The notes under the pieces are model-generated. The model had not been told where the DNA came from. It did no database searches and saw nothing but the letters and a program-made list of their open reading frames with translations. A stretch of DNA of 64,000 bases from NCBI GenBank assembly GCA_002347155.1, contig DDXO01000113.1, forward strand, positions 1,570 to 65,569, read 5' to 3'. Source of the DNA: a candidate division WOR-3 bacterium UBA2258. Lineage in GTDB: Bacteria; Hydrothermota; Tepidihabitantia; Tepidihabitantales; Tepidihabitantaceae. Both the position numbers and the translations under genes were made by a program. Below are positions 9,996 to 61,614 of the stretch, piece after piece. How positions within the stretch are numbered: the stretch's first letter is position 1; each line of letters opens with the position of its first letter.

Positions 9996-10124
9996 GGGAA
10001 CGCATCACCCAATTCCGCCCGCCCGTTTGACACGCCGAGGTCAGGCCACGGCCGACGGCCAACAGCCGGCGGCTCAAGGCCGGAGCCGGGCCGGAGGTCG
10101 CTTCGATTTGACGGCGTTCACATA

Positions 10125-10751
10125 TTGCGTACAATTGTTCGCGCTATGAGAACAAAGCCGGCGGGTCCGGGTGAAATCCTCTTCGGTGTGGCCAGGCGGA
10201 GAGTATTGGCCCTGTTGTTCGGCCATACCGACGAGGCCTTTCACCTGCGCCAGGTGGTCCGCGAAACCGGTCTCAGTCCGGGCGGCGTGCACCGCGAGCT
10301 CGCGCAGTTGGTCGAGGCTGACCTCGTCACTCGAACCCAGCAGGGGCGACAGGTCTACTTCCAGGCCAACCCGGCGAGTCCGATATTCGCCGAGCTGAAG
10401 AGCCTGCTCGTGAAGACCGCCGGAGTCGCCGACGTGCTGCGCGAGACGCTCGCGCCGCTGGCCGCGAGTATCAGCATTGCGTTCGTGTACGGTTCGGTGG
10501 CGCGAGGCGAGGAGCGCCGCGCGAGCGACGTGGACCTGCTGGTCATCGGTGATGCGTCGTTTGCCGCAGTCACGCAAGCCCTGGCACCGGCACAGCGCAG
10601 GCTGAGCCGCGAGGTGAACCCGACAGTGTACACGCCGGATGAGTTCCGGCAGAAGCTGGCAGCAGGGCACCATTTTCTCCGCAGCGTGACAGCGCGTGAG
10701 AAGCTCTTCCTGTTCGGCAATGAGCACGACCTTAGACATTTGGGTAAGTAA
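10125..10751 (+). CDS. winged-HTH plus nucleotidyltransferase (MNT / KNTase-type) protein, putative antitoxin of an MNT-HEPN pair
   Basis: Nucleotidyltransferase motif YGSVARGEERRASDVDLLVIGD; N-terminal HTH-like region. Confidence 0.65.
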   Translation: MRTIVRAMRTKPAGPGEILFGVARRRVLALLFGHTDEAFHLRQVVRETGLSPGGVHRELAQLVEADLVTRTQQGRQVYFQANPASPIFAELKSLLVKTAGVADVLRETLAPLAASISIAFVYGSVARGEERRASDVDLLVIGDASFAAVTQALAPAQRRLSREVNPTVYTPDEFRQKLAAGHHFLRSVTAREKLFLFGNEHDLRHLGK

Positions 10752-11175
10752 CGGCTCGCTGCAGCGGCACACCTCCAGTCCGGAGGAAATCGCCGACCTG
10801 TTGTCCGTGGTCGAACGGGACATCGCAGCGGCGCAGACCCCGGGTCTGTCCGATGACTGGAAGCTGGCGATTGCATACAATGCCGCCCTTCAGGCCGCAA
10901 AGGCAGCGCTGGCCGCAGCCGGCTTCCGCGTGTCACCGAGTGAGAAGGGACACCACTATCGCCTCGTCGAGTCGCTGCGTTACACGGTCGAGGCGCCGGG
11001 CCGTGACGTGGACCTGTTGCAGCGGATGAAGAAGAAGCGGCATGTGAGCGACTATGAGGTCGCCGGCGCGGTATCGGAGCAGGAGGCCAGGGAGATGCAC
11101 GAGCTGGCACTCCGCATCCGCGAGCTGGTGGTCCACTGGCTGCGTGAGCACCGCTCGGACCTGCTGACGCCGTAG
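10720..11175 (+). CDS. HEPN-domain protein, putative toxin partner of the upstream MNT
   Basis: Overlaps the stop of the MNT gene. Candidate R-x5-H motif (RMKKKRH); typical size (~150 aa) and arrangement. The longer alternative start at 10696 is in the ORF track. Confidence 0.5.
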   Translation: MSTTLDIWVSNGSLQRHTSSPEEIADLLSVVERDIAAAQTPGLSDDWKLAIAYNAALQAAKAALAAAGFRVSPSEKGHHYRLVESLRYTVEAPGRDVDLLQRMKKKRHVSDYEVAGAVSEQEAREMHELALRIRELVVHWLREHRSDLLTP

Positions 11176-15835: not shown

Positions 15836-17782
15836 CTACTTCAGGAAGTACACCTCGCGGAGCTGCGGGCGGCTGAGTGCGTCGGCCGCGGCCTTGAGCT
15901 GTGCGAACTCGGCGACCGAGTAGTCTGTCTTCGTCAGCCTTAACGAGTAGTGGAAGCTCACTCCATCCGCCGTCTTCGCCCAGCCGCCCCGGGCCGTGAT
16001 GCCGGCGGCGGACACTGCGACGCTGTCCGGCAGGACATCCACCTTCAGTCCGCGCGGCAGCTTGATCTTACAGGTGTACTCGTAGCCGCGCGCCGGCTTG
16101 GTCTCGACCGGGTTCGTGCGGCGTGCGCTCGCGGTGAGCCAGAACAGCTCCTCGCCGACCACGGCCGGCGTCGGCACGCGCAGCGAGAGCTCGCCCTTCT
16201 GCGCCACTGCGTAGCGCGGCGCCGTGAAGAAGAAACCGGTGGCCGCCGGCTCGGTCAGATCGGCCAGGTCTGAGAACCAGAACGTGTCGATCTGCGCCCC
16301 GGTCTTGATTGACGAAGCGGTCTGGGCCAGTGCCCGCTTCCGGTCGCTCGAAGTCCGGTTGCGCCAGGCTTCGCGCAGGGAGTTGTCGTAGCAGCCGCCC
16401 GTCATGGTGGTCACCGTTCCGGAGAGGTTGCCGTTCAGTTCGAGCACGAGCTGGGCGGTCGTAACCGCCCGGTCAGCCGGGTTCGGACCCGCGCCCGGAC
16501 TCTTGGTCAGTTGCGTGCTTGCCGAGTCAAGAAGCAGCGCGTCAACCCCGGCGTCCTCGTCCGGTATGGTGCCGTAGATGCGATACTCGGCGAACGGGTC
16601 GAAGAGCATCGGTTTGCCGTCAACGGTCGCCAGTGTAGCGAGCCAGTCGAAGGCGTCGGGCGATGGCACGCCGGGCGGTACGTCCAGCGACGTGCTCAGC
16701 GCGACCGGCGTCGCCGATATGCCCCGAGCGTCGAGCAGGCTGACGAGGAGCCGGTTCTTGTCCCGGCTGTCGCCGTACTTCCAGTTCAGGATATCCTGCG
16801 CCCTGTTGGTTTCGTACCCCGCGTCGCCGTAGTCGAGCCAGATGCTCCGCACCTGCTGGGTGACGAACAGGTAGATGGCTCTCGCAGCTTCGGCATCGGA
16901 CTTGCCTGCGGCCAGGCTGTCGGCAGTCCGCTTCAAAACCGGTGAGGCGACGCGGCCTTTGTCGAAGTCCTTGCGCAGCTTCGTCGCGACCTGTTTCCAG
17001 TCTTTGTACGAAGAGTAGCTGAGCACGGGCACGAGTCGCTCGATGTCGGGCATCGCCGCCTCGCGGAATATCTGCGGCGTGTTTGTCGCCGTCCACGTGT
17101 GCGAGTCCTGTTCAACCACCTCTACGAGGTCCAGACTCGAACCCCGGACTTCCTCTCCCGCTCCAGACCAGGCGTGCGAGTATCCCACTCCCCCGGGCAC
17201 GATCAGCGTGAATTCGCGCTTCAGCGCCGGGTTGAATCCGCCGAACGTGACCGTTCCGGAGAAACCGTCCTCTTTCGCGTTCTTCTTCGGTCTGACCCGT
17301 ACGCGGTACTCGATGACTGCGTCCGGTTCCAGGGCCGGGAACGAAACCACCTTGAGCATCGCGTTGGTGTAGGCCATGGCGCCCGCCACCTCCGGTGCGG
17401 AGACGTCGGAAATCGCACGGGCCTCGGGTTTGACGATACTGCCGTCGGGCCGGTGGGTGCAGGCCTGGAGGACCTCCACGGTCTGGCCGTCTTTGTTGAA
17501 CCTCTGCGTGATTTCGCCGAATTCGTCCCGGCCGCGGTCTTCGAAGATTTTCACCACGAGGTAGCGGTCGAGCGTGGTCGAGTTGTTCTTGTTCACGGTG
17601 ACGGTCTTGCGGTCGAGCAGGATGAGTGCGCCGGCCTCGGGATAGGCTTCCTGACCCGGGGCGGCCCTGATGATGCTGTCTATCTCGCCACCCAGGGACA
17701 AAGTCACAAGGACAATGGAAAAGACGACAGCCAAGCTTGCCACTGGAATCCTTGAATCCTTGATCCCCTGAATCCTAGTCAT
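15836..17782 (-). CDS. secreted DUF3857-like / transglutaminase-like superfamily protein, paralogue B, predicted catalytically inactive (Cys to Ser)
   Basis: Hydrophobic N-terminus (signal peptide). Transglutaminase core region YGDSRDKNRLLVSLLDARGISATPV, where the paralogue has YGVCRDKAALLVGMLRHVGIDAYI. Confidence 0.65.
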   Translation of the reverse strand: MTRIQGIKDSRIPVASLAVVFSIVLVTLSLGGEIDSIIRAAPGQEAYPEAGALILLDRKTVTVNKNNSTTLDRYLVVKIFEDRGRDEFGEITQRFNKDGQTVEVLQACTHRPDGSIVKPEARAISDVSAPEVAGAMAYTNAMLKVVSFPALEPDAVIEYRVRVRPKKNAKEDGFSGTVTFGGFNPALKREFTLIVPGGVGYSHAWSGAGEEVRGSSLDLVEVVEQDSHTWTATNTPQIFREAAMPDIERLVPVLSYSSYKDWKQVATKLRKDFDKGRVASPVLKRTADSLAAGKSDAEAARAIYLFVTQQVRSIWLDYGDAGYETNRAQDILNWKYGDSRDKNRLLVSLLDARGISATPVALSTSLDVPPGVPSPDAFDWLATLATVDGKPMLFDPFAEYRIYGTIPDEDAGVDALLLDSASTQLTKSPGAGPNPADRAVTTAQLVLELNGNLSGTVTTMTGGCYDNSLREAWRNRTSSDRKRALAQTASSIKTGAQIDTFWFSDLADLTEPAATGFFFTAPRYAVAQKGELSLRVPTPAVVGEELFWLTASARRTNPVETKPARGYEYTCKIKLPRGLKVDVLPDSVAVSAAGITARGGWAKTADGVSFHYSLRLTKTDYSVAEFAQLKAAADALSRPQLREVYFLK

Positions 17783-19733
17783 TCTCTCCTCCCGTCTTCA
17801 GCATGACGTGCTGACGCTCGAGTTCCTCGGTCGCGGCCAGAAGGCTCCGCAGGTCTTCATACTCGGTTACCGGCACGAGCGGGGCTTTGAGCCGGAACGA
17901 TGCCTCGTTGGTCAGGAGCCGACCCTTGACGACGGTGGCTGACGTTGCTTCGAACTTGTCGTGTACTTGCGCGAGCGAGTCGGGCACCAGCACCGTCTTG
18001 AAACCTCGGGGCAGTGCCATCCGGTGGACCATATGCCAGGCGAGGGTCGAACGGAGGTCGACATCGTACCTGCGCACCGGCATCGTCGACGCCCAGGAGA
18101 TGGAGCTGGACGTGAACATGCCGCTGCCGGCCTTGGGCAGCGAGAAGCGGATGGTGGATTGGCGACTGGCGCCGGGCGATCCGGGTTTGAGAACGGTGGC
18201 GAAGTCGGGCACCGAGAAACGGAGTTTGATTACAAGCGGCTGGTCCAGGTCGCGCGCGTCAGTCATCGTGACGGTGTCCAGTCTCGCGCCCGGCCCGAAC
18301 GCGCGCAGGTAGGTCTCGAAGCGCTGCTTCTGCCTGAGCGGCGGCAGGTACTGGACCAGCGAGCGCAGGCTGAGTTCCTGCTGCCCGGTGGGCGTCAGCA
18401 CGACTGCGCCAGTGAGCGAACCGTCGGCCCGGAGCGTGTCGTCTATCTGCACCTCGAGCCGGTTCGAATCGGCCGGGATGAGCGGCGTGTAGCGCAGGTC
18501 GTCACCGTCCCGGGTGGCAATCAGCACCCCGCGGTTCATCTCCGAAGCCGCGAGATACTGGCGCGAGTTCTCAACCGTGGGGTCAAGGTAGTAGATACTC
18601 GAATCCGGCCGCTTCACCGCGACGGTCGCGTGGTTGAACTGGTCGACGGGCAGCTCGGCGTCGGTCTGTGACCCGGGGTTCGTCAAGGTGATGTAGGCGT
18701 CAATGCCGACGTGGCGCAGCATCCCGACGAGCAGCGCGGCCTTGTCGCGGCACACGCCGTAGCGTTTCTGGAAAGTGAGGCTGATTTGCTCCGGCTGGTA
18801 CCCTGCCTTCCTGCCCGAGTACGAGGTTTCGACGTAGCGGATGCGCTGGTTGACGAAGTTGTAGAGCGCGCGGACCTTGGCGTCGTCGGTCGGGGCGCCC
18901 GCGACGAGCGAGTCGAGCGCGCGCGCGAGGGCCGAGTCGATACCGTACTGGGTGGAACAGAGCTCGTAGTACCAGCGCGACCAGGTCTGCCAGTCAGGCT
19001 GGGTGCAGACGAGTAGCCGCGTCATTGATTCGCGGTACGGCATCATCGGCTCGTAGACCAGCTTGGGCAGGTCGTGCGCCGACCAGGTCGTGCGCCGGCG
19101 CCTGCCTCTGACTGCGAAGCTCGTGTCCACGCTGCCGCCCTTCACCAGCCAGCGGAACTTCATCGTTGCCGGCGCATCGATCGCGTAGGCCACACACAAC
19201 GCCGGGTCACCGCCTCCAAAGTAATGCTCGGCGTCGTACTGGCTCTCCATCACCGGGTTGTACATGATGTCCTCGGTAACCCATTCGACCGACGAACCAA
19301 GCGCAAGGCCGGGGAACTGGATGGACTTCACCCGCACGTTGGGCAGGACGAACTTCGACCCTTCCCAGAGCGGGGTGGGTACATCCACGATGTCCTTCTT
19401 TCCTACGTTCGCGATCCTCCCGTCCGGCGATATCACCCGGGCCATTCTGACCTCGGCCTTCGAATAGGTCAGGCAGTACTCGTCCCAGGTTGTTGCGTAC
19501 TGCTGCTTGCCCTGCTCGGTCAGGATTTTCACCAGTTTGTGCCGGCGGGTCACGTTCCGGCCGTCGGCCCGGAGCGTGACAAGCGTGGAATCGAACACGG
19601 TGACCGCGTTCGCGTCCGGGTACTTGTCAAGGGTGATGGTCTTCAAGAGCGCGACCGGCGGCGCAGCCGCGGCCGCGGCGCCGGTGAGGAGAGCAAGCGC
19701 CAGTGCCAATCCGGTGGTTCTATTCATAGTCAT
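17775..19733 (-). CDS. secreted DUF3857-like / transglutaminase-like superfamily protein, paralogue A (catalytic Cys present)
   Basis: Signal peptide MTMNRTTGLALALALLTGAAAAAAP. Transglutaminase core YGVCRDKAALLVGMLRHVGIDAYITL. Stop overlaps the start of paralogue B (operon). Confidence 0.7.
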   Translation of the reverse strand: MTMNRTTGLALALALLTGAAAAAAPPVALLKTITLDKYPDANAVTVFDSTLVTLRADGRNVTRRHKLVKILTEQGKQQYATTWDEYCLTYSKAEVRMARVISPDGRIANVGKKDIVDVPTPLWEGSKFVLPNVRVKSIQFPGLALGSSVEWVTEDIMYNPVMESQYDAEHYFGGGDPALCVAYAIDAPATMKFRWLVKGGSVDTSFAVRGRRRRTTWSAHDLPKLVYEPMMPYRESMTRLLVCTQPDWQTWSRWYYELCSTQYGIDSALARALDSLVAGAPTDDAKVRALYNFVNQRIRYVETSYSGRKAGYQPEQISLTFQKRYGVCRDKAALLVGMLRHVGIDAYITLTNPGSQTDAELPVDQFNHATVAVKRPDSSIYYLDPTVENSRQYLAASEMNRGVLIATRDGDDLRYTPLIPADSNRLEVQIDDTLRADGSLTGAVVLTPTGQQELSLRSLVQYLPPLRQKQRFETYLRAFGPGARLDTVTMTDARDLDQPLVIKLRFSVPDFATVLKPGSPGASRQSTIRFSLPKAGSGMFTSSSISWASTMPVRRYDVDLRSTLAWHMVHRMALPRGFKTVLVPDSLAQVHDKFEATSATVVKGRLLTNEASFRLKAPLVPVTEYEDLRSLLAATEELERQHVMLKTGGEND

Positions 19734-20068
19734 CTCCGTTCTTGCCAGCGCTGACTATAGACCGGACTGCGGCGAAGTCAAAAGAATACCGCCTCAGCGG
19801 TCGAGATATCGGGGCCATCCTGATCCGGACGTCCTCGGGTTCGGCCGGCCTGCTCAATCCATGCCGCCGAACCGGCTTTCCCGACCTTGTGAACCCTGGG
19901 GCCGGCTTGGGCCCGGTGTTGGGGTTCGGTACACTTACCTATCCGTGCGCCGCCAGTCAACGGTGGTCTGGTAGTGTCGCAGTCACCCGTTACCGCTAAA
20001 TCATTACCGGACAGCAGGATACTCTGGCACGACCCTGACCGGATGTCGCACTAATGTCGCACCCTTGA

Positions 20069-20096
20069 TTGACAGTCGACAGGACTATGCTATGAT
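20069..20096 (+). promoter_or_regulatory. candidate sigma-70 promoter (TTGACA - 16 nt - TATGAT) ending 7 nt before the kinase-fusion start codon (leaderless-like)
   Basis: Consensus -35 at 20069-20074 and near-consensus -10 at 20091-20096. Speculative. Confidence 0.3.
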
Positions 20097-20102
20097 GAAG
20101 AG

Positions 20103-23100
20103 ATGGCGCAGCCTGCGAGGTTCCAGGTATCACAACTGGTCGCCGACCGTTTCCAAGTGCTTGACCGGCTCGGCGGCGGCGAATTCACGGAAACCTACAA
20201 GGTCACCGACACCGTCGCCAATCGGGTTCTTGCGCTGAAGACCCTGCGGACTGGCGCTCCCAAGTCGGCCGAGGCCCGACTCAATCGCGAATTCTACAGC
20301 CTGTCGCGCTTCTCACACCCGGGCATCGTCACGGCGCTTGACTACGGGTCAACGCCTGATGGACAGCCGTACTTCACCATGGAGTTCATCGAAGGGGTGC
20401 CGATCAATGTCTTCTTTGGGAAGGGCTTTCGTCCCGAACTGAAGACGGTCACGGTTCAACTGCTCGAAGCGCTGGCCCGCGTTCACGCGCAGGGCCTGAT
20501 TCACTGCGACCTCAAGCCGCAGAACATACTGGTGGCCGACAAAGACGGTTCCCTGCGGGCGAGGCTGATTGACTTCGGTTTTGCCGGTCAGCCGGCTCTC
20601 TCCGACGCGGACGCGGCGCGCGGGACATTGGGCTATGTCGCCCCGGAGGTACTCAAGGGCGTGGACACCGATGCCCGTGCCGACCTCTACTCGCTGGGCT
20701 TGGTGCTTTACGAGGTGATCGCCGGCCAGGGTCCGGGTAAGGACAGGGACCTTCGGAAGTGGCTCAGGATGCAGTATTTGTCTGAATTCAAGCCCCCCCG
20801 GGAGTTCGACGAGAATATCCCCGAGGACTTCGCGTCATTAGTGATGTCTCTGATACAGCGAGAGCCGGAGCGGCGGCCGCGCTCGGCCGCGGCAGTGATC
20901 GAGCAACTGACTCACCCCAAAGGTGAGCCGGCCGTCGAAATCGGGCCGCCCGAGTATTCCGTGGCACCGGGTTTTGTCGGTCGCGGTGATGAACTGGCCG
21001 GCCTCAAGGAGATGCTCGACAACGCGAGCAAAGGCAGGGCGGGCTCGGCCTGCGTCACGGGCGAGCGGGGAGTCGGCAAGAGCCGGCTGCTATCCGAGTT
21101 CAAGTTCATGGCGCAGCTCGAGGGCGCGACGATTCTCTCGTTCGAGCGCGCCTCGCTTGGAGCGAGACAGCCGTCGTTGGTCGAGATGATCCGCGGATAC
21201 CTCAGCACCTCCTCTGTCGCCGACATGCCGGCCGGCGACGAGAGCCGGGATGCAGCGCCGGGCGACAAGTATCGTCTGTTCGAGGCCGTGCTCCACGGCC
21301 TGAAGGAAATGAGCGCGTCGCCCCGGGTGCGGCACAGCCTCGTGTTGCTGGTTGACGACCTCGAGCTCTACGACTCGGACAGCCTCCAATTCCTTCGCTA
21401 CCTTGTTTTCGGTCTGAGCAACGAACGCCTTATGGTGCTCGTGGCCGGCGTAAGTGAAGCGCGGTTCTTGGACCTGGTTGCCGAGTTCGGCCGGACTGGC
21501 TGCTTCCAGCACTTCCAGTTGCCCCCGCTGGACCAGGCAGAGGTTACAGACCTGCTGGCATCGCTCGTCGACGAGATGCCGGGCACGGATGAGCTGGCCG
21601 AGTGGCTAACGCGCACTACCGGAGGGAATTCGCTCTTCGTGGTTGAGGCAATCCGGGCACTGATCGAAGGCGGAATCCTGTCCCGGCGGGGTAATCGCTG
21701 GACGCTGGTCCCGGGCGCACTGAATACCTACAAGACTCCGGAATCGGTGGCGGACGTACTGCGCCGGCGATTGGAAACCCTGGCCGCAATAGAGCTTGAG
21801 GTGCTCGAGGTCTCTGCAACCATAGCCGGGCCGTTTACGCTCGCGTTCCTGCGCGCGGTGGAGGAACAGCAGGATGAAGCGGCTCTGTCCGGCGCTGTCG
21901 GGAAGCTGAGGTCGCTGGGCCTGCTGCGCAGTCTCGTAATCGACGGCGAGGCGACCTTCGTGTTGTCGAGCAAGATGCTCGAAGCAGCGATCAACGAAGG
22001 GATGAGAGCTTCGGTCCGGCGCGAGAACCACCGCCGCGTCGCGCTGGTCATTGAAGCGCTCCATCCGGAGAAGACCGACCAACTGCTGTTCGACCTCGCG
22101 CACCATTACGCGCAGGCAGGCATTGAAGACCGCGCCTTCAACTACTCGTTGCAGGCCGGAACCCGAGCCCGCGAACGCCGGCTGAGCGAACAGGCACTCG
22201 GTTACTTCGAAACCGCGCTCGCGTTGGCGGCGCAGGCAGCAACGGCCCGAGAGAAGGTGGAACTGCACGAACGCGTCGGCGAATTGCGGGAGGCCACCGG
22301 GCGGTATCCCGAGGCGATTGACGCCTATACGCAGGGGATGGCAATAATCGCTGCCGACGCGGAACTCGCTCAGGACCAAGAGCTTTCATCCCGGTTCCGG
22401 CGCAGGGTGGGACTGGTGCAACAGAAGCAGGGTCACCACTATGAGGCCTTGGACAACTTCAACCAGGCGCTCCTGCTGCAGCCGGATAGAGGTGCGCCCG
22501 CATATATCGACACACTGAACGATATGGGTTGGTCGTACTACGCGCTCCGCGGTTACGGCCGGGCCGATCAACTGGTCTCCGCTGCCTTGCGACTGTCTGA
22601 GAATCTCAAGAACCGAACGCCGGCAGTCTACAGCCGATTGTCGGCCCGCTCGTTCTACCAGTTGAGCGTCCTCGCGTGGTCGCGGAGCGATCTGGTGCTG
22701 GCTCAGCAACTGGTTGAGCGCAGTCTCGAAATCTATGCGGGGATCGATGCGGAGCGCACCGCCGGCGAGGTCAGCCAGTTCCTTGCGACACTCTGGTGGA
22801 GTCGCGGCAACATTGCCAAAGCGAGGGACCAGTACCAACGGTGTCTGCCGGCGCAGCGGCGTTCGGGCGAGGTATACTCGCTGCTCCGTTCCCTGCAGGG
22901 TCTGGGAATCATATACCAGGCTGAATGCGAATGGGACAAGGCGTACAACTGCTTTGCCGAGGCGCTGAACCTGGCGGAGCGAATCGGCGACAACACGGCC
23001 ATCGCTGACCTCAACTCGAATCTCGGTACGATGAGCGAAGAACGTGGCGACTGGGACCAGGCTCTGGCGGCCTACCGCCGGGCGATTGAGCTGCGGCAGC

Positions 23101-25328
23101 AGGCACAGGCTGACCCCTACGGCCGAAACGTCGTCATGGCGAATCTGACCCAACTGCTCACCCGGCAGGGAGAAACGGCAGAGGCCGAGCGCTTGCTGGA
23201 GGAGATTCAGGCATTCGCGGGCCGGAACCCGACCTCGGATCTGGAATTCATGCTCGGCGTATGCCGTGTCCAGATCCTGCTTCGCACCGGGCGCCTCGAA
23301 GCCGCCCGGAACGCGGTTGCCCGGACGCTCCGGCTGGTCAGGCGCGAACGCGACCCGCGCAAACTCGCCCGGCTGCTCACCTTGGCCAGTGAACTGCGGC
23401 TGACGCAAGGGGAATTCGGCCGGGCTGCCGAGGACGCGCGCCGGGCACTGGTCTACCTCAGGGAGCAGGCGTCTTCCAGTGAGTATGCGGTCGCGCTGCG
23501 GTTTTCGGGGCTGGCCAAGTGCATGCTCGACCGCACCGACCGCGGGTTTCAGGAGATCCGCCGGAGTATCGAGCTGCTGAGGGAAACCGGCGTCCGGCAC
23601 GAATTGGCTCTCTCGCTCATGGCCTCGGCCCAGGCGCTCACCGGGTACGGCCGCCAGGAGATGACCCTCGACCTCAAGCTACCGCTTTCCTTCCGACCGG
23701 TTGCCGAACAGGACGTGGACGAGGCGCTGGCCAACCTCAAGGAGGCCCATGCGATCCTCCGCTCGATCGGGGCTCGCCCTGACGCGCAGCGGGCCGATGA
23801 GTTGATGGAGACGGTCAACCACGTATCCGCGACGTTGCGGCTGAAGGCGCGCGGCCGGGAGGAATACCTGGAGGTCTTCTACGAGATCAGCAAGCTCATC
23901 GGGCTGGGTCTGGAGAAGGAAGACTTTCTTGAGCACATCCTAGATTTGGTGATCGACGTCATCAAGGCCGAACGCGGGCTCCTTTTCCTCATGCAGCGCG
24001 GCAAGCTCGTGCCGGCGGCGGGACGGAACATCGACCATACTACGCTGGCAGATGCCACCGCGGTTTCCCGCTCGGTCTTGCGCAAAGTCAAAAGGGGCGA
24101 GACGGTCTTCAGCGCTGATGCACTGACGGATCCCCGTTTCAACAGCGCAAACAGCGTCATGCTCAATAAGATCCGTTCGCTGCTTTGCGTACCGCTCACG
24201 GTCGAGAAGCGCGTGGTGGGCACGATCTACGTCGACAGCCGGGTCACCGCGCATCTCTTTCTTGATGAGGACATGAATCTCCTCGTGTCCGTGGCAAACC
24301 TGTTGGCCGCCACTATCGACAAGTCGGCGGCGTTCAGGAAGCTGCAGGAGGAGATGTCCGTGCTGCGCGAGGATATGCTGGTGGACGCGGCCACCGGGTA
24401 CTTCATGGGCCGCTCCAAGGCGATGAAGGATGTGTACCGGGTGATTGACCGGATCGCCCCGTCCAACTGCACTGTGCTGCTGACCGGCGAAACCGGTACC
24501 GGCAAAGGTGTTCTGGCCCGGCTGATTCACGCGAAGAGCGAACGCCGCAGCCACGAATTCATGTCCATCAACTGCGGCGCTCTGCCCGAGAACCTGTTCG
24601 AGTCCGAACTGTTCGGCCACGCCCGGGGCGCCTTCACCGGCGCGGTCCGGGACAAAGACGGGCTGTTTGAGGCCGCTGTGGGAGGGACGGTCTTCCTGGA
24701 CGAGGTCAGCAACACGACGCTCGGCGTACAGGCTAAGTTGCTCCAGGTCCTCGACGAGAAGGTCGTGCGCCGGGTCGGCGAAACCCAACCGCGGAAGGTG
24801 GACGTACGGCTCGTCTGCGCGACAAACCGGGACCTTCGCCAGGACGTAAAAGCCGGGCGGTTCCGCGAGGACCTCTTCTACCGCGTGAACGGCGTGACTG
24901 TTAACGTCCCGGCATTGCGTGAGCGCTCCGGCGACATCGGGCTGCTCGCCGACTACTTCGTGAAGCGGTACGCTGGACAGATGAAAAAACCGGTAGACCG
25001 GTGCGAGGAAAGGGCGCTTGAGGTGCTTGCTAGCTACGCCTGGCCGGGCAATGTCCGCGAACTGCAGAATGTCATTGAACGCGCTGTCATCATGACCCAG
25101 AGTAACCGGATTGCCATTGATGACCTGGGAGCTCAGTTTGCCGGAATCGAAAGAATGACAGAAGTGCCTCGCGGCAAGCGCGAGCGATTCGAGCGCAGAG
25201 AAGTGGTCAACGCGCTGCGCGTCACCGGCGGGAACGTAAGCAAGGCAGCAGAGTTGCTGTCAGTTCACCGTCGGCAGTTCCAGCGACTGATGCAGCGCTT
25301 CGGAATAGACCGAACGAATCCCACCTAG
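20103..25328 (+). CDS. 1741-aa multidomain regulator: Ser/Thr protein kinase + STAND/AAA ATPase + TPR repeats + GAF + sigma-54 interaction (AAA+) domain + Fis-type HTH
   Basis: Kinase HCDLKPQNILV, DFGFA, GTLGYVAPE. Second P-loop GERGVGKSRLL. TPR-like repeats. GAF region. Sigma-54 activator motifs GETGTGKGVLARLIH, ESELFGHARGAFTGA, GTVFLDEV, CATNRDL. C-terminal HTH GNVSKAAELLSVHRRQFQRLM. Confidence 0.85.
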   Translation: MAQPARFQVSQLVADRFQVLDRLGGGEFTETYKVTDTVANRVLALKTLRTGAPKSAEARLNREFYSLSRFSHPGIVTALDYGSTPDGQPYFTMEFIEGVPINVFFGKGFRPELKTVTVQLLEALARVHAQGLIHCDLKPQNILVADKDGSLRARLIDFGFAGQPALSDADAARGTLGYVAPEVLKGVDTDARADLYSLGLVLYEVIAGQGPGKDRDLRKWLRMQYLSEFKPPREFDENIPEDFASLVMSLIQREPERRPRSAAAVIEQLTHPKGEPAVEIGPPEYSVAPGFVGRGDELAGLKEMLDNASKGRAGSACVTGERGVGKSRLLSEFKFMAQLEGATILSFERASLGARQPSLVEMIRGYLSTSSVADMPAGDESRDAAPGDKYRLFEAVLHGLKEMSASPRVRHSLVLLVDDLELYDSDSLQFLRYLVFGLSNERLMVLVAGVSEARFLDLVAEFGRTGCFQHFQLPPLDQAEVTDLLASLVDEMPGTDELAEWLTRTTGGNSLFVVEAIRALIEGGILSRRGNRWTLVPGALNTYKTPESVADVLRRRLETLAAIELEVLEVSATIAGPFTLAFLRAVEEQQDEAALSGAVGKLRSLGLLRSLVIDGEATFVLSSKMLEAAINEGMRASVRRENHRRVALVIEALHPEKTDQLLFDLAHHYAQAGIEDRAFNYSLQAGTRARERRLSEQALGYFETALALAAQAATAREKVELHERVGELREATGRYPEAIDAYTQGMAIIAADAELAQDQELSSRFRRRVGLVQQKQGHHYEALDNFNQALLLQPDRGAPAYIDTLNDMGWSYYALRGYGRADQLVSAALRLSENLKNRTPAVYSRLSARSFYQLSVLAWSRSDLVLAQQLVERSLEIYAGIDAERTAGEVSQFLATLWWSRGNIAKARDQYQRCLPAQRRSGEVYSLLRSLQGLGIIYQAECEWDKAYNCFAEALNLAERIGDNTAIADLNSNLGTMSEERGDWDQALAAYRRAIELRQQAQADPYGRNVVMANLTQLLTRQGETAEAERLLEEIQAFAGRNPTSDLEFMLGVCRVQILLRTGRLEAARNAVARTLRLVRRERDPRKLARLLTLASELRLTQGEFGRAAEDARRALVYLREQASSSEYAVALRFSGLAKCMLDRTDRGFQEIRRSIELLRETGVRHELALSLMASAQALTGYGRQEMTLDLKLPLSFRPVAEQDVDEALANLKEAHAILRSIGARPDAQRADELMETVNHVSATLRLKARGREEYLEVFYEISKLIGLGLEKEDFLEHILDLVIDVIKAERGLLFLMQRGKLVPAAGRNIDHTTLADATAVSRSVLRKVKRGETVFSADALTDPRFNSANSVMLNKIRSLLCVPLTVEKRVVGTIYVDSRVTAHLFLDEDMNLLVSVANLLAATIDKSAAFRKLQEEMSVLREDMLVDAATGYFMGRSKAMKDVYRVIDRIAPSNCTVLLTGETGTGKGVLARLIHAKSERRSHEFMSINCGALPENLFESELFGHARGAFTGAVRDKDGLFEAAVGGTVFLDEVSNTTLGVQAKLLQVLDEKVVRRVGETQPRKVDVRLVCATNRDLRQDVKAGRFREDLFYRVNGVTVNVPALRERSGDIGLLADYFVKRYAGQMKKPVDRCEERALEVLASYAWPGNVRELQNVIERAVIMTQSNRIAIDDLGAQFAGIERMTEVPRGKRERFERREVVNALRVTGGNVSKAAELLSVHRRQFQRLMQRFGIDRTNPT

Positions 25329-25793
25329 AGCGGCGTCCGGTCTTCGACGCGCTAGTCTAAGTCTTTTTTTAGCAATGAGTTAGAGCGTAGCCGGAGCGCA
25401 GTGCGACCACAGGCGCGGCCTGCCTAGGTAGCCGGAATTGTCTTCTATATATCGCAGGTACGATTCTTAGCTGCGTTCTGTGCTGCAGGTATGGGAATTG
25501 CTTAAACTTAATTGAGGAATTCGCGGCAATTTCGAGACTGGCGTGACCGAGATGAAAATCCAGGCTACGCCCGTGCTTCGGCGCGAGATCTTACGCCCCA
25601 GTGAAGATGGGTGCGTGTGCCGCGGACATGGTGCAGGTAGGTTCGTAACTGAATGGAGGCTTGAGTGGAAGCCATCGCTCCGTTTCCGATTCCGCCCATG
25701 CCGGGTCCCTGGACCCCGCCGCCCTTCTAGATCGCAGGGCGTAGCCTAATCTACTCCGGCCAGCACCCAAAGCTGTCATTGGGGTGCGGCGAT

Positions 25794-26981
25794 TCAGCCC
25801 GCCAAGGTGGGCTTATTGGTGTTGCGTACGCCGAGCGCGCCAGTCTTATGGCCACGGCGGCTGCGGGACGGAGGCTGGACGTCGGTTCGCGCACCGTCAC
25901 TGGACAGTGAACGCTCGCAGGCATCGAGTACCTCCAAAACACGCAGCTCCTCTTCTCCATCGGTAACCGGGGGCTGGCGCGTCTCCAAGCTCTCAAGAAA
26001 CGCGATACACTCGGCCTTCATCGGTTCGGTTGAGTCGATACGGATCGGTTTGCCGGCGGATTCGGCTGAACTCACAGACGAATCCTTCCAGTCGCCACGT
26101 GGGTAGGTCACCAATCGGTCGGGCGCGGCTTCGTCGAACACCGCCATCTCGTCGGACCCGACCACCACCAGCCGCTGCTCCTGGAAAGGACGCAGTCGAC
26201 TCACGAAAATCTGGGCGCGGACCCCTCCGGCAAACACGAACTGGCTGATGGTAACATCTGATACTCCGCGGCTTAGGTAATCTCCTCCCTGGCATGACGC
26301 AGCCAGCGGCTGCTCGCCGAGCAGGCCCAGAATCACCGAAACCTCGTGCGGGGCGAAGCTCCACAGGATGTTCTCCTCGGCTCGTTGCCGGGCAACGCTC
26401 AGGCGGTTTGAGCAAATGTACTCGACCCTGCCTAGGTCCCCCGCGTCAATCATATCCTTCAGCCTGCAGATAGCGGGGTGGTAGCGCAGGACATTGCCCA
26501 CCATCAGAACTCGACCCGAGCCCGCGGCGGTCCTCACCAGTTCCTGTCCGTCGCGGAGCGTCAGTGCCAGGGGTTTCTCGACGAAAACATCTTTGCCTGC
26601 TCGCAGCGCGGCTCGGACCAGCTCGAAGTGTGACACTGCGGGCGTGGCGATCACGACGGCGCTGACGTCCGGATCCGCCAAGCAGTCTTCTGTGCGACCG
26701 TAGTGCTTGACTGCACCGTTTGGCATGGCGGTCAGCCGTGCAGGGTCGGTGTCGCAGACCGCGCGGAGGGTGCCCAGATCGCCGAAGGTCTGGACGAGAC
26801 CTTTGCCCCACCAGCCAGCACCGATGACCGCAATCCGGCGCTCCACTGCGGCGAGCGGCAGAGACCCAAGATGGAGGCTGTCGACGGACGGGGAAGTCCT
26901 CAGGACAGAGGCGGCGTGCCTGGAATTGACCGGAGACGGTACCCGGCTGCTGGGCTCCAATTCAGTTGCGAGTCGTACCAT
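25794..26981 (-). CDS. Gfo/Idh/MocA family NAD(P)-dependent oxidoreductase
   Basis: Rossmann motif IAVIGAGWWGKG near the N-terminus of the trimmed ORF. The start was moved to the ATG at 26981 (MVRLATE...); the longer track ORF has an implausible N-terminal extension. Confidence 0.75.
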   Translation of the reverse strand: MVRLATELEPSSRVPSPVNSRHAASVLRTSPSVDSLHLGSLPLAAVERRIAVIGAGWWGKGLVQTFGDLGTLRAVCDTDPARLTAMPNGAVKHYGRTEDCLADPDVSAVVIATPAVSHFELVRAALRAGKDVFVEKPLALTLRDGQELVRTAAGSGRVLMVGNVLRYHPAICRLKDMIDAGDLGRVEYICSNRLSVARQRAEENILWSFAPHEVSVILGLLGEQPLAASCQGGDYLSRGVSDVTISQFVFAGGVRAQIFVSRLRPFQEQRLVVVGSDEMAVFDEAAPDRLVTYPRGDWKDSSVSSAESAGKPIRIDSTEPMKAECIAFLESLETRQPPVTDGEEELRVLEVLDACERSLSSDGARTDVQPPSRSRRGHKTGALGVRNTNKPTLAG

Positions 26982-28254
26982 GTGGCTAATCCAGACTAGA
27001 AAGCGTCGGCGCAGCAACAATCCGAGACGGGGTTTGGGCCAAAGCCTGGACGGAGGTGTGATGGGCCATCCCTGGCTGGCAGTTACTATCAAACGGGGAC
27101 CGACAGACTGACTGCTGCGCCGACCATAATGAGCGACCCCCAACTGGAGGCGTACTGCAAAGACGTTCGGTATCATGGAGGCTGGACACCTGAACACCGC
27201 AGTCTACGTGCTTAGCGAGGCGAGACCCAGGGGCCGATTTCATTGTCCTTCCCAAAGCACAACGTGTGCCGAACAGCGTCGAGGAAGCCATTTTCGACGC
27301 AGGTCACGTATTTCCAACGACTAACGGAGAATCGCGTCGGCAGCGTCTGGTGCGACAACGAGGCGTGATGGCGATGGTAGAACGTATAACTAACGTATAT
27401 ATGGAACTTAAATGCCGTGACACTAGCATGTGCTCAAGTCTCACCTGCGCACCTGCCAACAGCGCGTTACAGACGTTTCCTCGATTTCCGCCATGGAAGT
27501 GGCCTAATGATCGCCGCTTGCGCATGGCTCCGCACATAGAAACGGCGTCCGGCTGCTGGAAGCGCGCGGGTTTTGGGCACCAGGGGCTTCCTGCGTGTGG
27601 ATTCAACGCCAGCACTGCTGAGGCGGGGTGTCGTCGCACCATAGGCCTTGTACGTCTCCTAGTCATATCATGCGTAGATACGTTGTTTATATGGTGCGAC
27701 ATTTGATTCGAGTCGCAATGGCTGGTTTGGACAGCGTCTATGCTTACTGCGCTGGTGACTTGGCTGGAGCGCTGCTGTGCCTAGAGTGGCAGCACAAGCC
27801 TACTTCCGGTTGCCTCCCGGCGCTGCCGGCACAGTAGCAGCTTGAAGCAGGTGCGCGGCGTTGGCCGGTCTCTCGCTCAGCCGGCGGGGCGGGGGCGTGA
27901 GGCGCAAGTACGGTCGAATGCCCTGCCGACGGCCGTTGTGTTCGGCGGCAGTTGAAGTTGGACGAAGTCCGGCTGTGGCGGTAGGGCTGCGTCGCCCTCG
28001 CGGGTTGTGAGCCGAATGCTGGCTGTACGTGAGTCCGGGGCCGGCGTTCAGGTTGTCCAGGAAACAGGTCCTCGGACCAGCGGTGCAGTCGCCGCCGGAC
28101 CCCGGATTCGTACGGTGACACTTCCTTGGTTGTATGCATTCACTTGACCTCGGGCCTCTTTCCGGATATAACATCCGCATGCAAGGCCGATTGGCGCACA
28201 AGCGACTCGGGAACAAGCCGTCGCCGCCCGGGCGTGCGGCGACTTCGAGGTACA

Positions 28255-49336: not shown

Positions 49337-49361
49337 GAAAGTGACGAGCGACAGATTTCGA

Positions 49362-61612: not shown

Positions 61613-61614
61613 CG

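Follow-up and report, generated by a model that had tools for sequence, protein, structure and literature searches.

A gene from candidate division WOR-3 encodes a 1741-residue protein that is probably (we put it at roughly 60%) a multi-input sigma-54 activator which, in the WOR-3 lineage, regulates its own expression and drives a gene for a small proline-rich peptide. This reading draws on the sequence of the gene and its flanks, compared with orthologous loci that are designated here by L-numbers (L004, L005, L007, etc.) and set against the window, i.e., the whole 64-kb stretch of DNA analysed. The gene is real, but its family is widespread and uncharacterised. Sigma-54 activators are, according to the textbooks, controlled by receiver, GAF or PAS domains, and this large and deeply conserved family places a kinase of eukaryote-like type and a STAND switch resembling those of NLRs and MalT ahead of the AAA+ motor.

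An intact kinase-STAND-sigma-54 fusion and its relatives

The gene and the domains of its product are as follows.

20103–25328, plus strand: activator gene (kinase-STAND-TPR-GAF-sigma-54), from the ORF, Pfam and homologue alignment
20151–20891, plus strand: Hanks-type Ser/Thr kinase domain, non-RD (HCD), residues 17–263 (Pfam Pkinase, 6e-42)
20985–22004, plus strand: STAND NTPase module (P-loop, helical domain, winged helix), about residues 295–634
22008–23822, plus strand: TPR/helical-repeat sensor array, about residues 636–1240
23919–24317, plus strand: GAF domain, residues 1273–1405 (Pfam, 7e-14)
24405–25151, plus strand: sigma-54 interaction AAA+ domain and lid, residues 1435–1683 (Pfam, 3e-68)
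25179–25301, plus strand: Fis-type HTH, residues 1693–1733, recognition helix HRRQFQRL clade-specific (HTH_8, 1.7e-9)

The reading frame runs uninterrupted from ATG to TAG, and its product carries, in this order, a non-RD Ser/Thr kinase, a MalT-like STAND ATPase, a TPR array, a GAF domain, a sigma-54 AAA+ domain with GAFTGA loop and a Fis HTH; no transmembrane segment is predicted in it. An earlier note, made from the letters of this DNA, had described such a single-chain fusion, and rightly so: the ORF is intact, the identical protein occurs in independent assemblies, more than 100 full-length homologues are colinear with it, Pfam detects each of Pkinase, AAA_16, TPR, GAF, Sigma54_activat and HTH_8, and the motifs quoted are present (HCDLKPQN at 134–141, DFG at 157–159, APE at 180–182, GAFTGA at 1509–1514). 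The chance that a PknK-like and a NifA-like gene were joined by misassembly or a frameshift, which the note itself had named as what would overturn it, is as good as nil, and that reading is already refuted. Nothing except the unusual length was found in its favour; GC content stays at 0.59–0.67 along the gene with no break, composition and GC3 are even throughout, and 112 colinear full-length homologues, with identity down to 28%, cross the TPR-GAF junction. The exact sequence is present on JGI, ENA, Logan and NCBI contigs, and because the identical product recurs in at least three independent assemblies, which differ in samples and pipelines, the ORF is no chimera.

Residue conservation was counted over 113 full-length sequences, 112 homologues among them. 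The kinase domain (144 bits against a Pfam cutoff of 31.7) is PknB-like by sequence comparison with the PDB and has the complete Hanks catalytic set (K46, E63, D136, N141, D157, A180–E182). K46, E63, H134, D136, K138, D157, P181 and E182 are conserved in 111–113 of the 113 sequences, and position 141 is N in 92 sequences and H in the remaining 21. The middle residue of the HxD motif (135) is C in 73 sequences and G in 13, with R confined to 5; the HCD motif found here has no RD arginine, and the kinase is therefore of the non-RD type. In the STAND module, AAA_16 matches residues 291–444 (1e-19, 72 bits against a cutoff of 32.6), Walker A is GERGVGKS (320–327), with its three G and its K kept in 112–113 sequences, and Walker B is LLVDD (415–419), with DD (418–419) in 100 of 113. 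The succession of nucleotide-binding domain, helical domain, winged helix and repeat sensor is that of STAND proteins, and the fold resembles NLR and Apaf-1. The sensor array comprises six TPR_12 stretches and TPR_MalT (Pfam), its fold similarity to TPRs being only generic.

The output end is equally complete. Sigma54_activat (PF00158) matches residues 1435–1600 (3e-68, 229 bits against a cutoff of 20.2) and AAA_lid_14 residues 1606–1683, and the structures of ZraR, NtrC1 and PspF match the AAA+ domain at 1e-60 to 1e-74. Its motifs are Walker A GETGTGKG (1462–1469), GAFTGA (1509–1514), Walker B DE (1533–1534) and FREDLFYR (1587–1594); GETGTGK, DE 1533–1534, R1588 and R1594 are invariant in the 113 sequences, and the loop, with family consensus G[AS]FTGA, is kept in 111–113. 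By its AAA+ and GAFTGA features, the protein thus qualifies in sequence as a bacterial enhancer-binding protein (bEBP). All three nucleotide-binding modules retain their catalytic residues (in 100–113 of 113), which fits a device that takes a signal to sigma-54 within one polypeptide.

The earlier note had proposed just such a one-component system coupling kinase and STAND sensing to sigma-54, and had added that the fusion is rare. The intact chain and the conserved catalytic residues fit the first statement; the second falls, since the search for orthologues found the architecture to be common, in WOR-3 and in several other groups, an outcome that the note itself had set as grounds for its refutation. 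At least 112 full-length clusters at 90% identity have it, with candidate division WOR-3, Acidobacteriota/Thermoanaerobaculia, Sorangium, Rhodothermales and Planctomycetota among the named sources. Among the 150 closest clusters at 50% identity, kinase, STAND, GAF and sigma-54 domains occur together in 41 representatives, kinase and STAND without further output in 85, and kinase, STAND and GAF without the sigma-54 domain in 12. A scan of genome contigs by full-length alignment, which was dominated by generic sigma-54 activators (most conserved peptides GAFTGA and WPGNVREL), gave only L008 (Rhodothermales) and L078 (Planctomycetota) as full-length matches. Neither the peptide nor a fusion of kinase, STAND and sigma-54 modules is described in the literature that we searched, which also contains no experimental work on the family; a 2008 survey of the myxobacterial kinome by Perez et al. 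is said to mention, perhaps, kinase-regulator fusions in Sorangium.

The two ends of the chain recall different known systems. The sigma-54 activators NifA, NorR and FhlA have GAF, AAA+ (GAFTGA) and Fis HTH in equal order; the NifA profile TIGR01817 aligns over residues 1256–1676, the NorR profile over 1262–1736 and the NifA structure 9qq6_C over 1325–1735, and relative to these activators all sigma-54-contact and ATPase residues are retained. However, the protein has an additional N-terminal kinase-STAND-TPR module of about 1250 residues, and its likely target is a micro-peptide gene in place of the nif, nor or hyc operons. The NifA equivalog TIGR01817 gives 369 bits, below its cutoff of 528.85, there are no nif genes nearby, and no NCBIfam model reaches its cutoff with the protein; with scores short of all curated equivalog cutoffs, it is none of NifA, NorR and FhlA.

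PknK phosphorylates the regulator VirS and is not known to have a DNA-binding or sigma-54 module. Like the present protein, PknK of Mycobacterium tuberculosis begins with a Hanks kinase, after which come an AAA_16/MalT-like ATPase and helical repeats; here, in contrast, the output to transcription is part of the chain itself and the kinase is non-RD (HCD). MalT, the STAND activator of E. coli, differs in its LuxR HTH, its sigma-70 promoters and its lack of kinase, GAF and AAA+ sigma-54 modules. Kinase-STAND-GAF proteins and the TIGR03903 family ("TOMM system kinase/cyclase fusion protein") share the kinase-STAND(-TPR)(-GAF) input platform and differ in their outputs, many such proteins being histidine kinases like cyanobacterial HstK or carrying a cyclase. 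TIGR03903, which we take to be encoded beside small modified-peptide precursor genes, matches residues 392–1042 with 225 bits, far under its 706-bit cutoff. The PknK family, with multiple linked domains, is included in an atlas of bacterial kinases (bioRxiv 10.1101/2025.01.12.632604).

Candidate promoters and the proline-rich peptide gene

Upstream of the activator gene, two DUF3857 genes lie on the minus strand (15836–19733), the nearer of which (17775–19733) also has a transglutaminase domain; downstream, a convergent gene (25794–27197, minus strand) encodes a GFO/IDH/MocA oxidoreductase. Across ten orthologue groups (33–100% identity) the protein-coding neighbours are unrelated, and the DUF3857/transglutaminase pair, present only beside the 87% orthologue, was dropped as a conserved partner. 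The second sigma-54 activator that the earlier note had placed next to the gene is not there: apart from the present protein, GAFTGA occurs in the window only in the product of 44282–45928 (plus strand), 19 kb off. A promoter of sigma-54 type does adjoin the gene, as the note had said, at 25487–25502; the near-consensus TGGCATGGCATTTGCA at 46073 belongs in the neighbourhood of the 44282–45928 gene. No rpoN lies within the 64-kb window; its existence is implied by consensus −24/−12 promoters in orthologous loci and by the second bEBP in the window. The elements around the activator gene are the following.

20044–20062, plus strand: two direct TGTCGCAC repeats (20044–20051 and 20055–20062), 11 bp apart, putative operator
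20069–20096, plus strand: sigma-70-type promoter TTGACA-16-TATGAT, 11/12 matches, extended −10 TG (sequence scan)
25401–25407, plus strand: GTGCGAC (GTCGCAC in reverse orientation), putative enhancer (UAS), 86 nt upstream of the −24 element
25445–25474, plus strand: conserved non-coding block CTATnTATCGCAGrTrCGA..CTTAkCTGC in the UAS-promoter interval (alignment)
25487–25502, plus strand: sigma-54-type −24/−12 promoter AGGTATGGGAATTGCT, 159 nt downstream of the stop codon (conservation in orthologous loci)
25655–25730, plus strand: ribosome-binding site GGAGG (25655–25659) and 21-codon ORF (GTG 25665 to TAG 25730), MEAIAPFPIPPMPGPWTPPPF
25796–25813, plus strand: terminator-like hairpin AGCCCGCCAAGGTGGGCT past the peptide ORF, with a weak T-tract

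The two TGTCGCAC repeats abut the −35 element of the regulator's own sigma-70-type promoter, which suggests autoregulation. The scan for promoters of this type found two sites, with 0.2 expected in shuffles, and with the −10 element ending 6 nt short of the ATG a leaderless mRNA is possible. As another candidate promoter, TGGCAC at 20025 was rejected, the GC of its −12 element being missing. A repeat pair of the form (W)TGTCGCA(C/T), with extended consensus WTGTCGCAC, precedes the regulator in the window, L004, L005, L007, L088, L137 and L138, at 47–91 nt from the start codon in six loci and at 6–24 nt in L137. Exact copies of TGTCGCAC number only four in the 64 kb, each beside a putative promoter of the system; as a count of the 8-mer alone, this is not significant (2.9 expected in the window). 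Over nine loci, the density of GTCGCA/TGCGAC is 2.2–10 per kb in the flanks of the gene and 0.3–1.2 per kb elsewhere.

The HTH of the activator most likely binds these sites in the WOR-3 lineage. A helix of the form H-R-R/Q-Q/T-x-Q-R-L/V is common to the orthologues that have TGTCGCAC sites at their loci, and the acidobacterial and Sorangium clades have another recognition helix in its place; P0085 (locus L141) has the same helix, yet its flanks are without the exact hexamer, and the site could belong to another factor. The intact gene, its domains, the conserved motifs, the STAND fold and the preserved layout of promoter, site and micro-ORF, with purifying selection on the peptide, are established by the analysis; the DNA-site assignment, the activation mechanism and the roles of kinase and peptide are what we infer.

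On its own, the promoter at 25487–25502 is weak (8 of 11 consensus positions, −24 element AGGTAT), the background of such 16-mer matches being 0.74 per kb per strand, and it convinces only because it is conserved in orthologous loci. A −24/−12 element lies 151–173 nt after the stop codon in L004, L088, L005, L137, L093, L007 and L143, at +204 in L140 as a perfect TGGCACGGAAGTTGCT (15/15) and at +379 in L138 as TGGCACAAAAATTGCT (14.5/15). The putative enhancer recurs across the loci: a (G)TGCGAC(A/C) site precedes the −24 element by 84–93 nt in the window, L004, L007, L088, L093 and L143 and by 104–122 nt in L138 and L140, GTGCGAC forms an invariant column block in a four-locus alignment, and L005 has a one-mismatch variant in the same alignment column. 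The block at 25445–25474 is a candidate DNA-bending site or second operator. Window-wide, relaxed promoter matches and the 7-mer co-occur no more often than by chance (10 observed, 8.6 expected), and the case for a target rests therefore on positional conservation across loci; no regulon is claimed past two positionally conserved promoters.

Downstream of the promoter lies the peptide ORF, which is not extendable, as an in-frame TGA directly precedes it. Past the stop codon come a −24/−12 element, a GGAGG and a proline-rich ORF of 16–21 codons in the window, L088/L090, L005, L137, L093, L007, L138 and L143, i.e., in eight of ten orthologue groups, with the promoter at a distance of 151–379 nt; in L140 the layout recurs, its promoter matching the consensus and its ORF encoding a prepeptide with signal peptide. 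Homologous micro-ORFs occur in seven further orthologue groups and signal-peptide or six-repeat precursors in three more. In all, 11 groups have a micro-ORF or prepeptide gene directly downstream, and in three of these a Sec signal peptide is encoded; in the more distant orthologues a Sec signal peptide precedes the motif, which in one case is repeated six times in tandem. The peptide motif is found once in the entire window. In diverged pairs its pN/pS is 0.14–0.40 (pS 0.65–0.80, pN 0.11–0.30): the peptide is under purifying selection, with synonymous change near saturation. The hairpin at 25796–25813 shares its sequence with the 3' end of the convergent gene, and L143 has a clear intrinsic terminator after its peptide ORF. 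A role as leader peptide in attenuation was rejected, because the next gene is convergent here and a different one elsewhere and the terminator directly follows in L143.

It is very unlikely that the conserved downstream unit is a non-coding RNA in which the proline-rich ORF is incidental. The ORF is indeed very short, the window has a 150-nt leader and no protein homologue is on record, the six-repeat precursor of L139 finding no match as a database query. Against this, GGAGG is correctly spaced at every locus, the amino-acid motif is held while third positions approach saturation, low-GC L138 included, the motif recurs inside signal-peptide and six-repeat proteins, and Rfam has no family match at 25300–27800. 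The peptide gene is probably the direct target of the activator. L141 (33% identity) has a proline-rich prepeptide gene apparently with a sigma-70-type promoter, and GTCGCA sites are absent; L142 (29% identity, Thermoanaerobaculia) has no proline-rich peptide. As these two deviate, the link between regulator and peptide is confined to the WOR-3 clade.

Proposed mode of action and other roles for the peptide

The N-terminal two thirds of this cytoplasmic activator form a PknK-like module, with its non-RD Hanks kinase, MalT-like STAND ATPase and TPR sensor array, and the NifA/NorR-like C-terminal third (GAF, AAA+, Fis HTH) is, as we picture it, the output, which would remodel sigma-54 RNA polymerase at the expense of ATP. 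Its HTH would sit on TGTCGCAC sites, those at its own sigma-70 promoter among them, and from the site about 86 nt upstream of the −24/−12 element it would switch on the unit for the 21-residue proline-rich peptide; in the sub-clade of the window it may also turn on a second sigma-54 transcript, on the minus strand at 27271. While the system is off, the closed STAND module and the GAF domain would hold the AAA+ domains back from the active hexamer. A ligand at the TPR array and/or the GAF domain, together with ATP at the STAND module, would cause oligomerisation, a STAND-driven assembly step that we infer by analogy with MalT; the AAA+ ring would thereby form at the enhancer, and the non-RD kinase domains would come close enough to one another to phosphorylate, in trans, the protein itself or other substrates.

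The regulator, enhancer, promoter and micro-ORF form a cassette of less than 6 kb, the first concrete, compact and portable candidate target for the family. E. coli has sigma-54, which makes reconstitution there feasible and opens the way to asking what STAND oligomerisation, the kinase and ligands of the GAF and TPR domains each do to gate an enhancer-binding protein, and whether a proline-rich micro-peptide is a signal. The peptides add an unannotated family of 16–21 residues to an uncultivated phylum, with secreted multi-copy precursors in relatives, and gene callers overlook what is the most informative neighbour of the activator gene.

What the peptide does bears on how the activator is triggered. 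It may be output only, e.g., a secreted antimicrobial, ribosome-targeting, surface or adhesion peptide, with the regulator sensing an unrelated intracellular or metabolic cue through GAF and TPR and no feedback on the sensor, an alternative that we hold possible though doubtful. The conserved promoter-ORF unit and the secreted forms in distant orthologues agree with it, as does the binding of small molecules by the GAF domains of NifA, NorR and FhlA, and PIYPPPRPAPP and IPPRPKPGP presumably bear a loose resemblance to insect proline-rich antimicrobial peptides. However, the peptides are not cationic, unlike known proline-rich antimicrobials, no co-conserved immunity or export genes accompany them and no annotated homologue was found.

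Alternatively, the peptide could be an autoinducer in the manner of quorum sensing, exported, re-imported and bound by the TPR array, where it would set off STAND oligomerisation and so its own sigma-54-dependent expression. We rate this as rather unlikely; the export route would be Sec where a signal peptide is present and a dedicated exporter for the short forms. The idea refines the best explanation without contradicting it, and feedback through the TPR array may occur. The positive-feedback pair of receptor and pheromone would resemble PlcR-PapR, NprR-NprX or Rgg-SHP, and, as in RRNPP systems, a small peptide gene adjoins the gene of the putative receptor. Pfam finds none of the RRNPP family domains (XRE-type HTH, Rap-type effector) in the protein, and given their absence and the WOR-3 lineage it is not an RRNPP member and at most works similarly. 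In contrast to RRNPP/Rgg-SHP systems (PlcR-PapR, NprR-NprX, Rap-Phr) of Firmicutes, WOR-3 is diderm, the circuit depends on sigma-54 and not sigma-70, and the protein adds a STAND ATPase, a kinase and a GAF domain and has no XRE-type HTH. The likeness is thus a "works-like" hypothesis only, with putative peptide binding. Its fullest form, in which docking at the TPR array leads to a STAND-driven AAA+ ring, activates the kinase by induced proximity and adds a phosphorylation output, is likewise rather unlikely; if true, RRNPP-like peptide quorum sensing would be on record outside Firmicutes for the first time, here with sigma-54-dependent autoinduction, and the protein would be the first of the enhancer-binding proteins known to be gated by a STAND module.

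A last alternative, which we find scarcely credible, is an Avs/NLR-like anti-phage sensor whose kinase-STAND-TPR part recognises a phage protein and whose sigma-54 module induces a toxic peptide or RNA for abortive infection. It has the NLR- and Apaf-1-like fold on its side, together with PADLOC matches of the kinase domain (PD-T4-6, mad6, MkoA) and of the bEBP domain (RtcR-type), and a restriction-modification/BREX-like cluster (905–9217) and a HEPN/nucleotidyltransferase pair (10125–11175) lie 9–19 kb upstream. However, the PADLOC matches are to single generic domains and, among the 25 families listed, none spans the STAND/TPR region; the whole protein and the STAND sensor match no defence model, and neighbouring genes have no PADLOC matches. 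The nearby defence genes are not conserved at orthologous loci, and the orthologues form a vertical-type series in WOR-3 (33–100% identity) with cis elements intact, unlike a patchy island gene.

A second candidate target on the minus strand

The multi-input activator may have one further target, beyond the peptide gene, in the convergent flank.

27256–27357, minus strand: TGTCGCAC (27357–27350) 86 nt upstream of a sigma-54-type promoter CGGCACACGTTGTGCT (27271–27256)
27005–27124, minus strand: conserved structured segment of the transcript, with a 12-bp closing helix GUCGGCGCAGCA/UGCUGCGCCGAC

The spacing of −86 between UAS and promoter is the same at both candidate promoters of the window, and an additional TGTCGCAC lies beyond this pair at 27701–27694. 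Promoter and site are conserved in L088, and the counterpart in L005 is TGGCATGCATCGTGCA at 16128 (minus strand) with three sites upstream. The structured segment is limited to orthologues of at least 70% identity, and with only two covarying pairs among three sequences its structure is not established. It is a candidate small RNA or, alternatively, may serve the oxidoreductase gene as 5' leader, and its closing helix surrounds an unpaired, anti-Shine-Dalgarno-like CAUCACACCUCC.

Domain architecture and family of the regulator

The regulator gene (20103-25328, plus strand) encodes an intact sigma-54 activator (bEBP), in which all three nucleotide-binding modules are conserved, and is accompanied by a conserved cis-regulatory cassette. 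It is a single unbroken ORF of 1741 codons, with a uniform GC3 of 0.78 and a GC content that shows no break. The Pfam matches along the protein are:

residues 17-263, Pkinase (6e-42)
residues 291-444, AAA_16
between AAA_16 and GAF, six TPR_12 stretches and TPR_MalT
residues 1273-1405, GAF
residues 1435-1600, Sigma54_activat (3e-68)
residues 1606-1683, AAA_lid_14
residues 1693-1733, HTH_8

This order agrees with the chain described in an earlier note, the core of which was correct: the HCDLKPQN, DFG and APE motifs, the second P-loop and the GAFTGA loop are all located in the 1741-aa protein. That note had named a frameshift or an assembly chimera as what would overturn it, and such an artefact is refuted because the exact 1741-aa sequence is found on independent contigs of the JGI, ENA and Logan assemblies, and in the NCBI record too. 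No hydrophobic segment suggestive of a membrane span was found in the protein.

Residue conservation was counted over 113 aligned sequences, namely the query and 112 full-length homologues. The kinase residues K46, E63, H134, D136, K138, D157, P181 and E182 are conserved in 111-113 of the 113 sequences, the STAND Walker A is nearly invariant, the Walker B DD is present in 100, and the Walker A, G[AS]FTGA, DE and arginines of the sigma-54 module are invariant. Between the catalytic-loop His and Asp there is a Cys in 73/113 and a Gly in 13/113, with other residues in the remainder; since Arg occupies this position in only 5/113, the kinases form a non-RD family. Judged by the sequence features tested, the regulator is a member of the bEBPs, of the Hanks kinases (non-RD subtype) and of the STAND NTPases; its input platform resembles PknK and its output resembles NifA. 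Its C-terminal 490 residues can be aligned to NifA, NorR, ZraR and NtrC1; the scores are below the respective cutoffs for NifA, NorR and FhlA, so that it is none of these three. None of the curated NCBIfam models covers it, every match being under its cutoff, and no paper describing this family was found in the literature searched.

More than 100 homologues that span the full length (1,650-1,940 aa) and share the Pfam set were retrieved by database search, at 87% to 28% identity. The sources named among them include candidate division WOR-3, Acidobacteriota/Thermoanaerobaculia, Polarisedimenticolaceae and Sorangium, and full-length matches occur in Rhodothermales and Planctomycetota genomes as well. 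An exhaustive search with residues 1-1200 gave 18,590 clusters (50% identity) at E<=1e-30; among the best 150 cluster representatives, 41 carry kinase, STAND, GAF and sigma-54 modules, 12 kinase, STAND and GAF only, and 85 kinase and STAND only. The earlier note had called the fusion rare, a claim that fails: these sequence comparisons show a deep and widespread family of more than 1000 proteins, whose kinase-STAND platform is itself very common, and an architecture common in the lineage is what the note itself had said would refute it. The relatives that have kinase, STAND and GAF modules and lack the sigma-54 module, together with the TIGR03903 kinase/cyclase fusions, show this platform coupled to outputs of other kinds. 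An anti-phage STAND system is an unlikely reading of the regulator, as PADLOC returns only generic single-domain matches for it and its inheritance is orthologue-like.

A conserved promoter and proline-rich micro-ORF

The protein-coding neighbours of the regulator, namely two DUF3857 genes (minus strand, one with an added transglutaminase domain) and a GFO/IDH/MocA oxidoreductase, are not conserved among orthologues: the DUF3857 pair is retained in the 87% orthologue only, and all surrounding genes are different at 70%, 60%, 50%, 49%, 45%, 44%, 39% and 33% identity. Unlike these neighbours, the non-coding DNA right after the regulator stop codon is conserved, with an invariant GTGCGAC, a block CTATnTATCGCAGrTrCGA..CTTAkCTGC and a -24/-12 (sigma-54-type) element, behind which lies an ORF for a proline-rich peptide.

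Promoter and peptide ORF at the regulator loci (protein identity in brackets; offsets measured from the regulator stop codon)
Window: -24/-12 AGGTATGGGAATTGCT at +159; peptide ORF MEAIAPFPIPPMPGPWTPPPF at +337 (25665-25730, plus strand)
L004 (87%): -24/-12 GGGTATGGGAATTGCT at +157; contig stops short of the ORF
L088/L090 (82-90%): -24/-12 AGGTATGGGAATTGCT at +160; peptide ORF MEATRPFPIPPMPGPITPPPY at +332
L005 (70%): -24/-12 TGGAATGAGAATTGCC at +167; peptide ORF MMGTPFPIPPMPLPITPPPY at +221
L137 (60%): -24/-12 TGGCACCGAACATGCG at +169; peptide ORF MPVFGIPIPPRPGPVAPPVR at +224
L093 (58%): -24/-12 AGGCACTTGATTTGCT at +173; peptide ORF MDGIPIPPRPGPLGPP at +230
L007 (50%): -24/-12 TGGTATTATAAATGCA at +164; peptide ORF MDGWGVPIYPPPIPAPPK at +217
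L138 (49%): -24/-12 TGGCACAAAAATTGCT at +379; peptide ORF MDGPFAPIYPPPIPAPPTA at +465
L143 (45%): -24/-12 CGGCATCTGAATTGCT at +151; peptide ORF MDGPIVPIYPPPRPAPPGK at +214
L140 (39%): -24/-12 TGGCACGGAAGTTGCT (consensus) at +204; 49-aa prepeptide at about +252

Over the window, -24/-12 matches of comparable quality have a frequency of about 0.74 per kb on each strand, yet a slot of about 25 nt is filled in eight orthologue groups, which is not chance. A GGAGG ribosome-binding site precedes each peptide ORF, and at L143 an intrinsic terminator follows directly 3' of it. At L004 (15420-15518, plus strand), the sequence diverges after the conserved promoter into an ORF starting MPKRLPPLVCDEKDRKFVEE, where the contig ends; a mobile element may have inserted at the expected position of the peptide gene.

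When the window is translated in all six frames, the proline-rich motif appears a single time, and PFPIPPMPGPWTPPPF is an N-terminally trimmed form of the window peptide. Subtypes of the peptide are PFPIPPMP, PIYPPP and IPPRP. In more distant orthologues the same motif stands behind a Sec-type signal peptide, as in the prepeptides of L140 (MKLFRKIIGVLLLLVSVAVLAGKLHA followed by DETPTWPTPVPGPPVPPPPIDGH) and L141 (...GATLAMA followed by DPTNALPPPTQPLPLPAPPQ), while the L139 (44%) precursor, for which no homologue is recorded, is 139 aa long and has DGIIIPPRPKPGPSWLADGT six times in tandem as well as a signal peptide. Codon comparisons of the peptides gave a pS of 0.65-0.80, i.e., near-saturated synonymous change, and a pN of 0.11-0.30; the ratio of 0.14-0.40 indicates purifying selection on the peptide. 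Rfam holds no family that matches the micro-ORF region, and the alternative that the conserved element is a non-coding RNA, its proline-rich ORF being incidental, is disfavoured by this substitution pattern and by the signal-peptide versions of the motif.

As L142 (29%, acidobacterial) has no proline-rich peptide at its locus and the L141 promoter is apparently of the sigma-70 type, the linkage of regulator and peptide is, to judge from these loci, a trait of the WOR-3 clade and not of the whole family. After the regulator homologue of L142, from Thermoanaerobaculia, there is instead a secreted protein that is rich in Cys and about 190 aa long (8270-8870, plus strand), and the small secreted product that goes with the regulator may differ from clade to clade of the family.

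Candidate binding sites and proposed mechanism

The hexamer GTCGCA/TGCGAC occurs 2.2-10 times per kb in the regulator-gene flanks of nine loci vs 0.3-1.2 times elsewhere, with WTGTCGCAC as extended consensus. The putative site of the regulator, the exact 8-mer TGTCGCAC, has four copies only in the window, which, with related features, are:

20044 and 20055, TGTCGCAC, 11 bp apart, directly next to the -35 element of a strong promoter of sigma-70 type
TTGACA-16-TATGAT (11/12 match), that promoter, with 6 nt between the end of its -10 and the regulator ATG
25401-25407, reverse-oriented GTGCGAC, with the peptide promoter 86 nt downstream
27271-27256, minus strand, second -24/-12 element CGGCACACGTTGTGCT
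27350 and 27694, minus strand, TGTCGCAC, the former 86 nt upstream of CGGCACACGTTGTGCT

L004, L005, L007, L088, L137 and L138 likewise have a (W)TGTCGCA(C/T) repeat pair 5' of the regulator gene. CGGCACACGTTGTGCT and its site are kept in L088 and L005 and not in more distant orthologues. Orthologues whose loci carry the sites have in common the recognition helix H-R-R/Q-Q/T-x-Q-R-L/V, which unrelated sequences replace in the acidobacterial and Sorangium clades. The assignment of the site is correlative, an argument from position and cross-species conservation, and neither the count in the window (4 observed vs 2.9 expected) nor the relaxed co-occurrence of promoter and site (10 vs 8.6) is significant alone. 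No Shine-Dalgarno precedes the regulator ATG (20069-20105, plus strand), and given the position of the -10, the 5.2-kb mRNA may be leaderless. In the putative minus-strand transcript from CGGCACACGTTGTGCT (27005-27357), conserved blocks could pair as a 12-bp closing helix that encloses an unpaired, anti-Shine-Dalgarno-like CAUCACACCUCC; this transcript may be a small RNA under sigma-54 control, may serve as leader of the oxidoreductase gene (25794-26981), or may carry a small ORF (MKSAPGSRLA...).

The overall statement that the regulator is a bEBP with the peptide gene as its direct target has, in our estimate, a probability of roughly 0.6. The HTH would bind the TGTCGCAC sites, autoregulating the sigma-70-type promoter of its own gene, and the protein would act as enhancer-binding activator of the peptide promoter and, in this sub-clade, also of the minus-strand promoter at 27271. 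The predicted 5' ends of the two transcripts are near 25512 (plus strand) and 27245 (minus strand), and the peptide transcript would be short, spanning 25512-25815. By analogy with MalT and other STAND proteins, a TPR/GAF ligand together with ATP might open the STAND module and lead to oligomerisation, an economical route to the AAA+ hexamer that every bEBP requires; we hold such STAND-gated assembly to be possible, at somewhat less than even odds. Non-RD kinases are usually switched by assembly or proximity and not by activation-loop phosphorylation, and oligomerisation could juxtapose the kinase domains for trans-phosphorylation, either as a second output or as a lock on the active state.

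Autoinduction by the peptide, resembling RRNPP or Rgg-SHP systems, is an attractive possibility by analogy, with a receptor gene adjoining the peptide gene and secreted precursors in relatives; equally compatible is a peptide that is output only, the regulator sensing an unrelated signal. That the peptide itself is the TPR ligand appears unlikely. Membership of the RRNPP family is rejected, there being no common HTH or effector domain and the phylum being another, and the regulator may function similarly outside it. The regulator is thus a bEBP whose kinase-STAND input is unstudied and whose probable target is a micro-peptide gene, and its value is raised by the conserved cassette in which it is joined by a candidate enhancer, a sigma-54-type promoter and the proline-rich micro-ORF. 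This cassette is unannotated, apparently undescribed, and could be tested directly by reconstitution in E. coli.

A second activator and other features of the window

The second sigma-54 activator that the earlier note had placed next to the regulator is absent, the only other GAFTGA protein being encoded 19 kb away (44282-45928, plus strand; 548 aa, Sigma54_activat and HTH_8, the N-terminal 185 residues without a Pfam match). Since no TGTCGCAC site is present at its locus (44282-46090), it is probably part of a separate circuit. The best consensus sigma-54 promoter of the window, TGGCATGGCATTTGCA at 46073, lies 3' of this gene (region 44282-46090, plus strand) and upstream of an operon for a GT4 glycosyltransferase and an ABC-2 transporter (46387-50249). 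The arrangement wrongly ascribed to the window is that of L141 (33%), where a response-regulator-type sigma-54 activator (1564-2940, plus strand) is directly upstream of the giant gene, and a good sigma-54 promoter, CGGCACGCTTCTTGCT, is found 632 nt downstream, ahead of a 97-aa ORF.

A defence-type cluster occupies 905-11175, in place of which the L004 locus has an HsdM-type methylase:

905-5422, minus strand, Eco57I/MmeI-like methyltransferase with DUF7008
5379-6158, minus strand, 23S-rRNA-IVP/zinc-ribbon protein
6155-9217, minus strand, PLD-SNF2/helicase protein
10125-11175, HTH-nucleotidyltransferase and HEPN pair

The gene at 28126-31059 (plus strand) encodes a protein of 977 aa in which a TPR array at the N-terminus gives way to about 550 highly repetitive E/R/A/K-rich residues (AEAKARAEAERK-type), and these repeats explain why the AT skew is extreme (0.6-0.68) between 29.5 and 31 kb. 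Further along are PdxA (50249-51289) and HypF (55646-57925). At 58041-59576 and 60235-63390 (plus strand) the window has dnaA, so that the replication origin may be near, and, just downstream of it, genes for V/A-type ATPase subunits.
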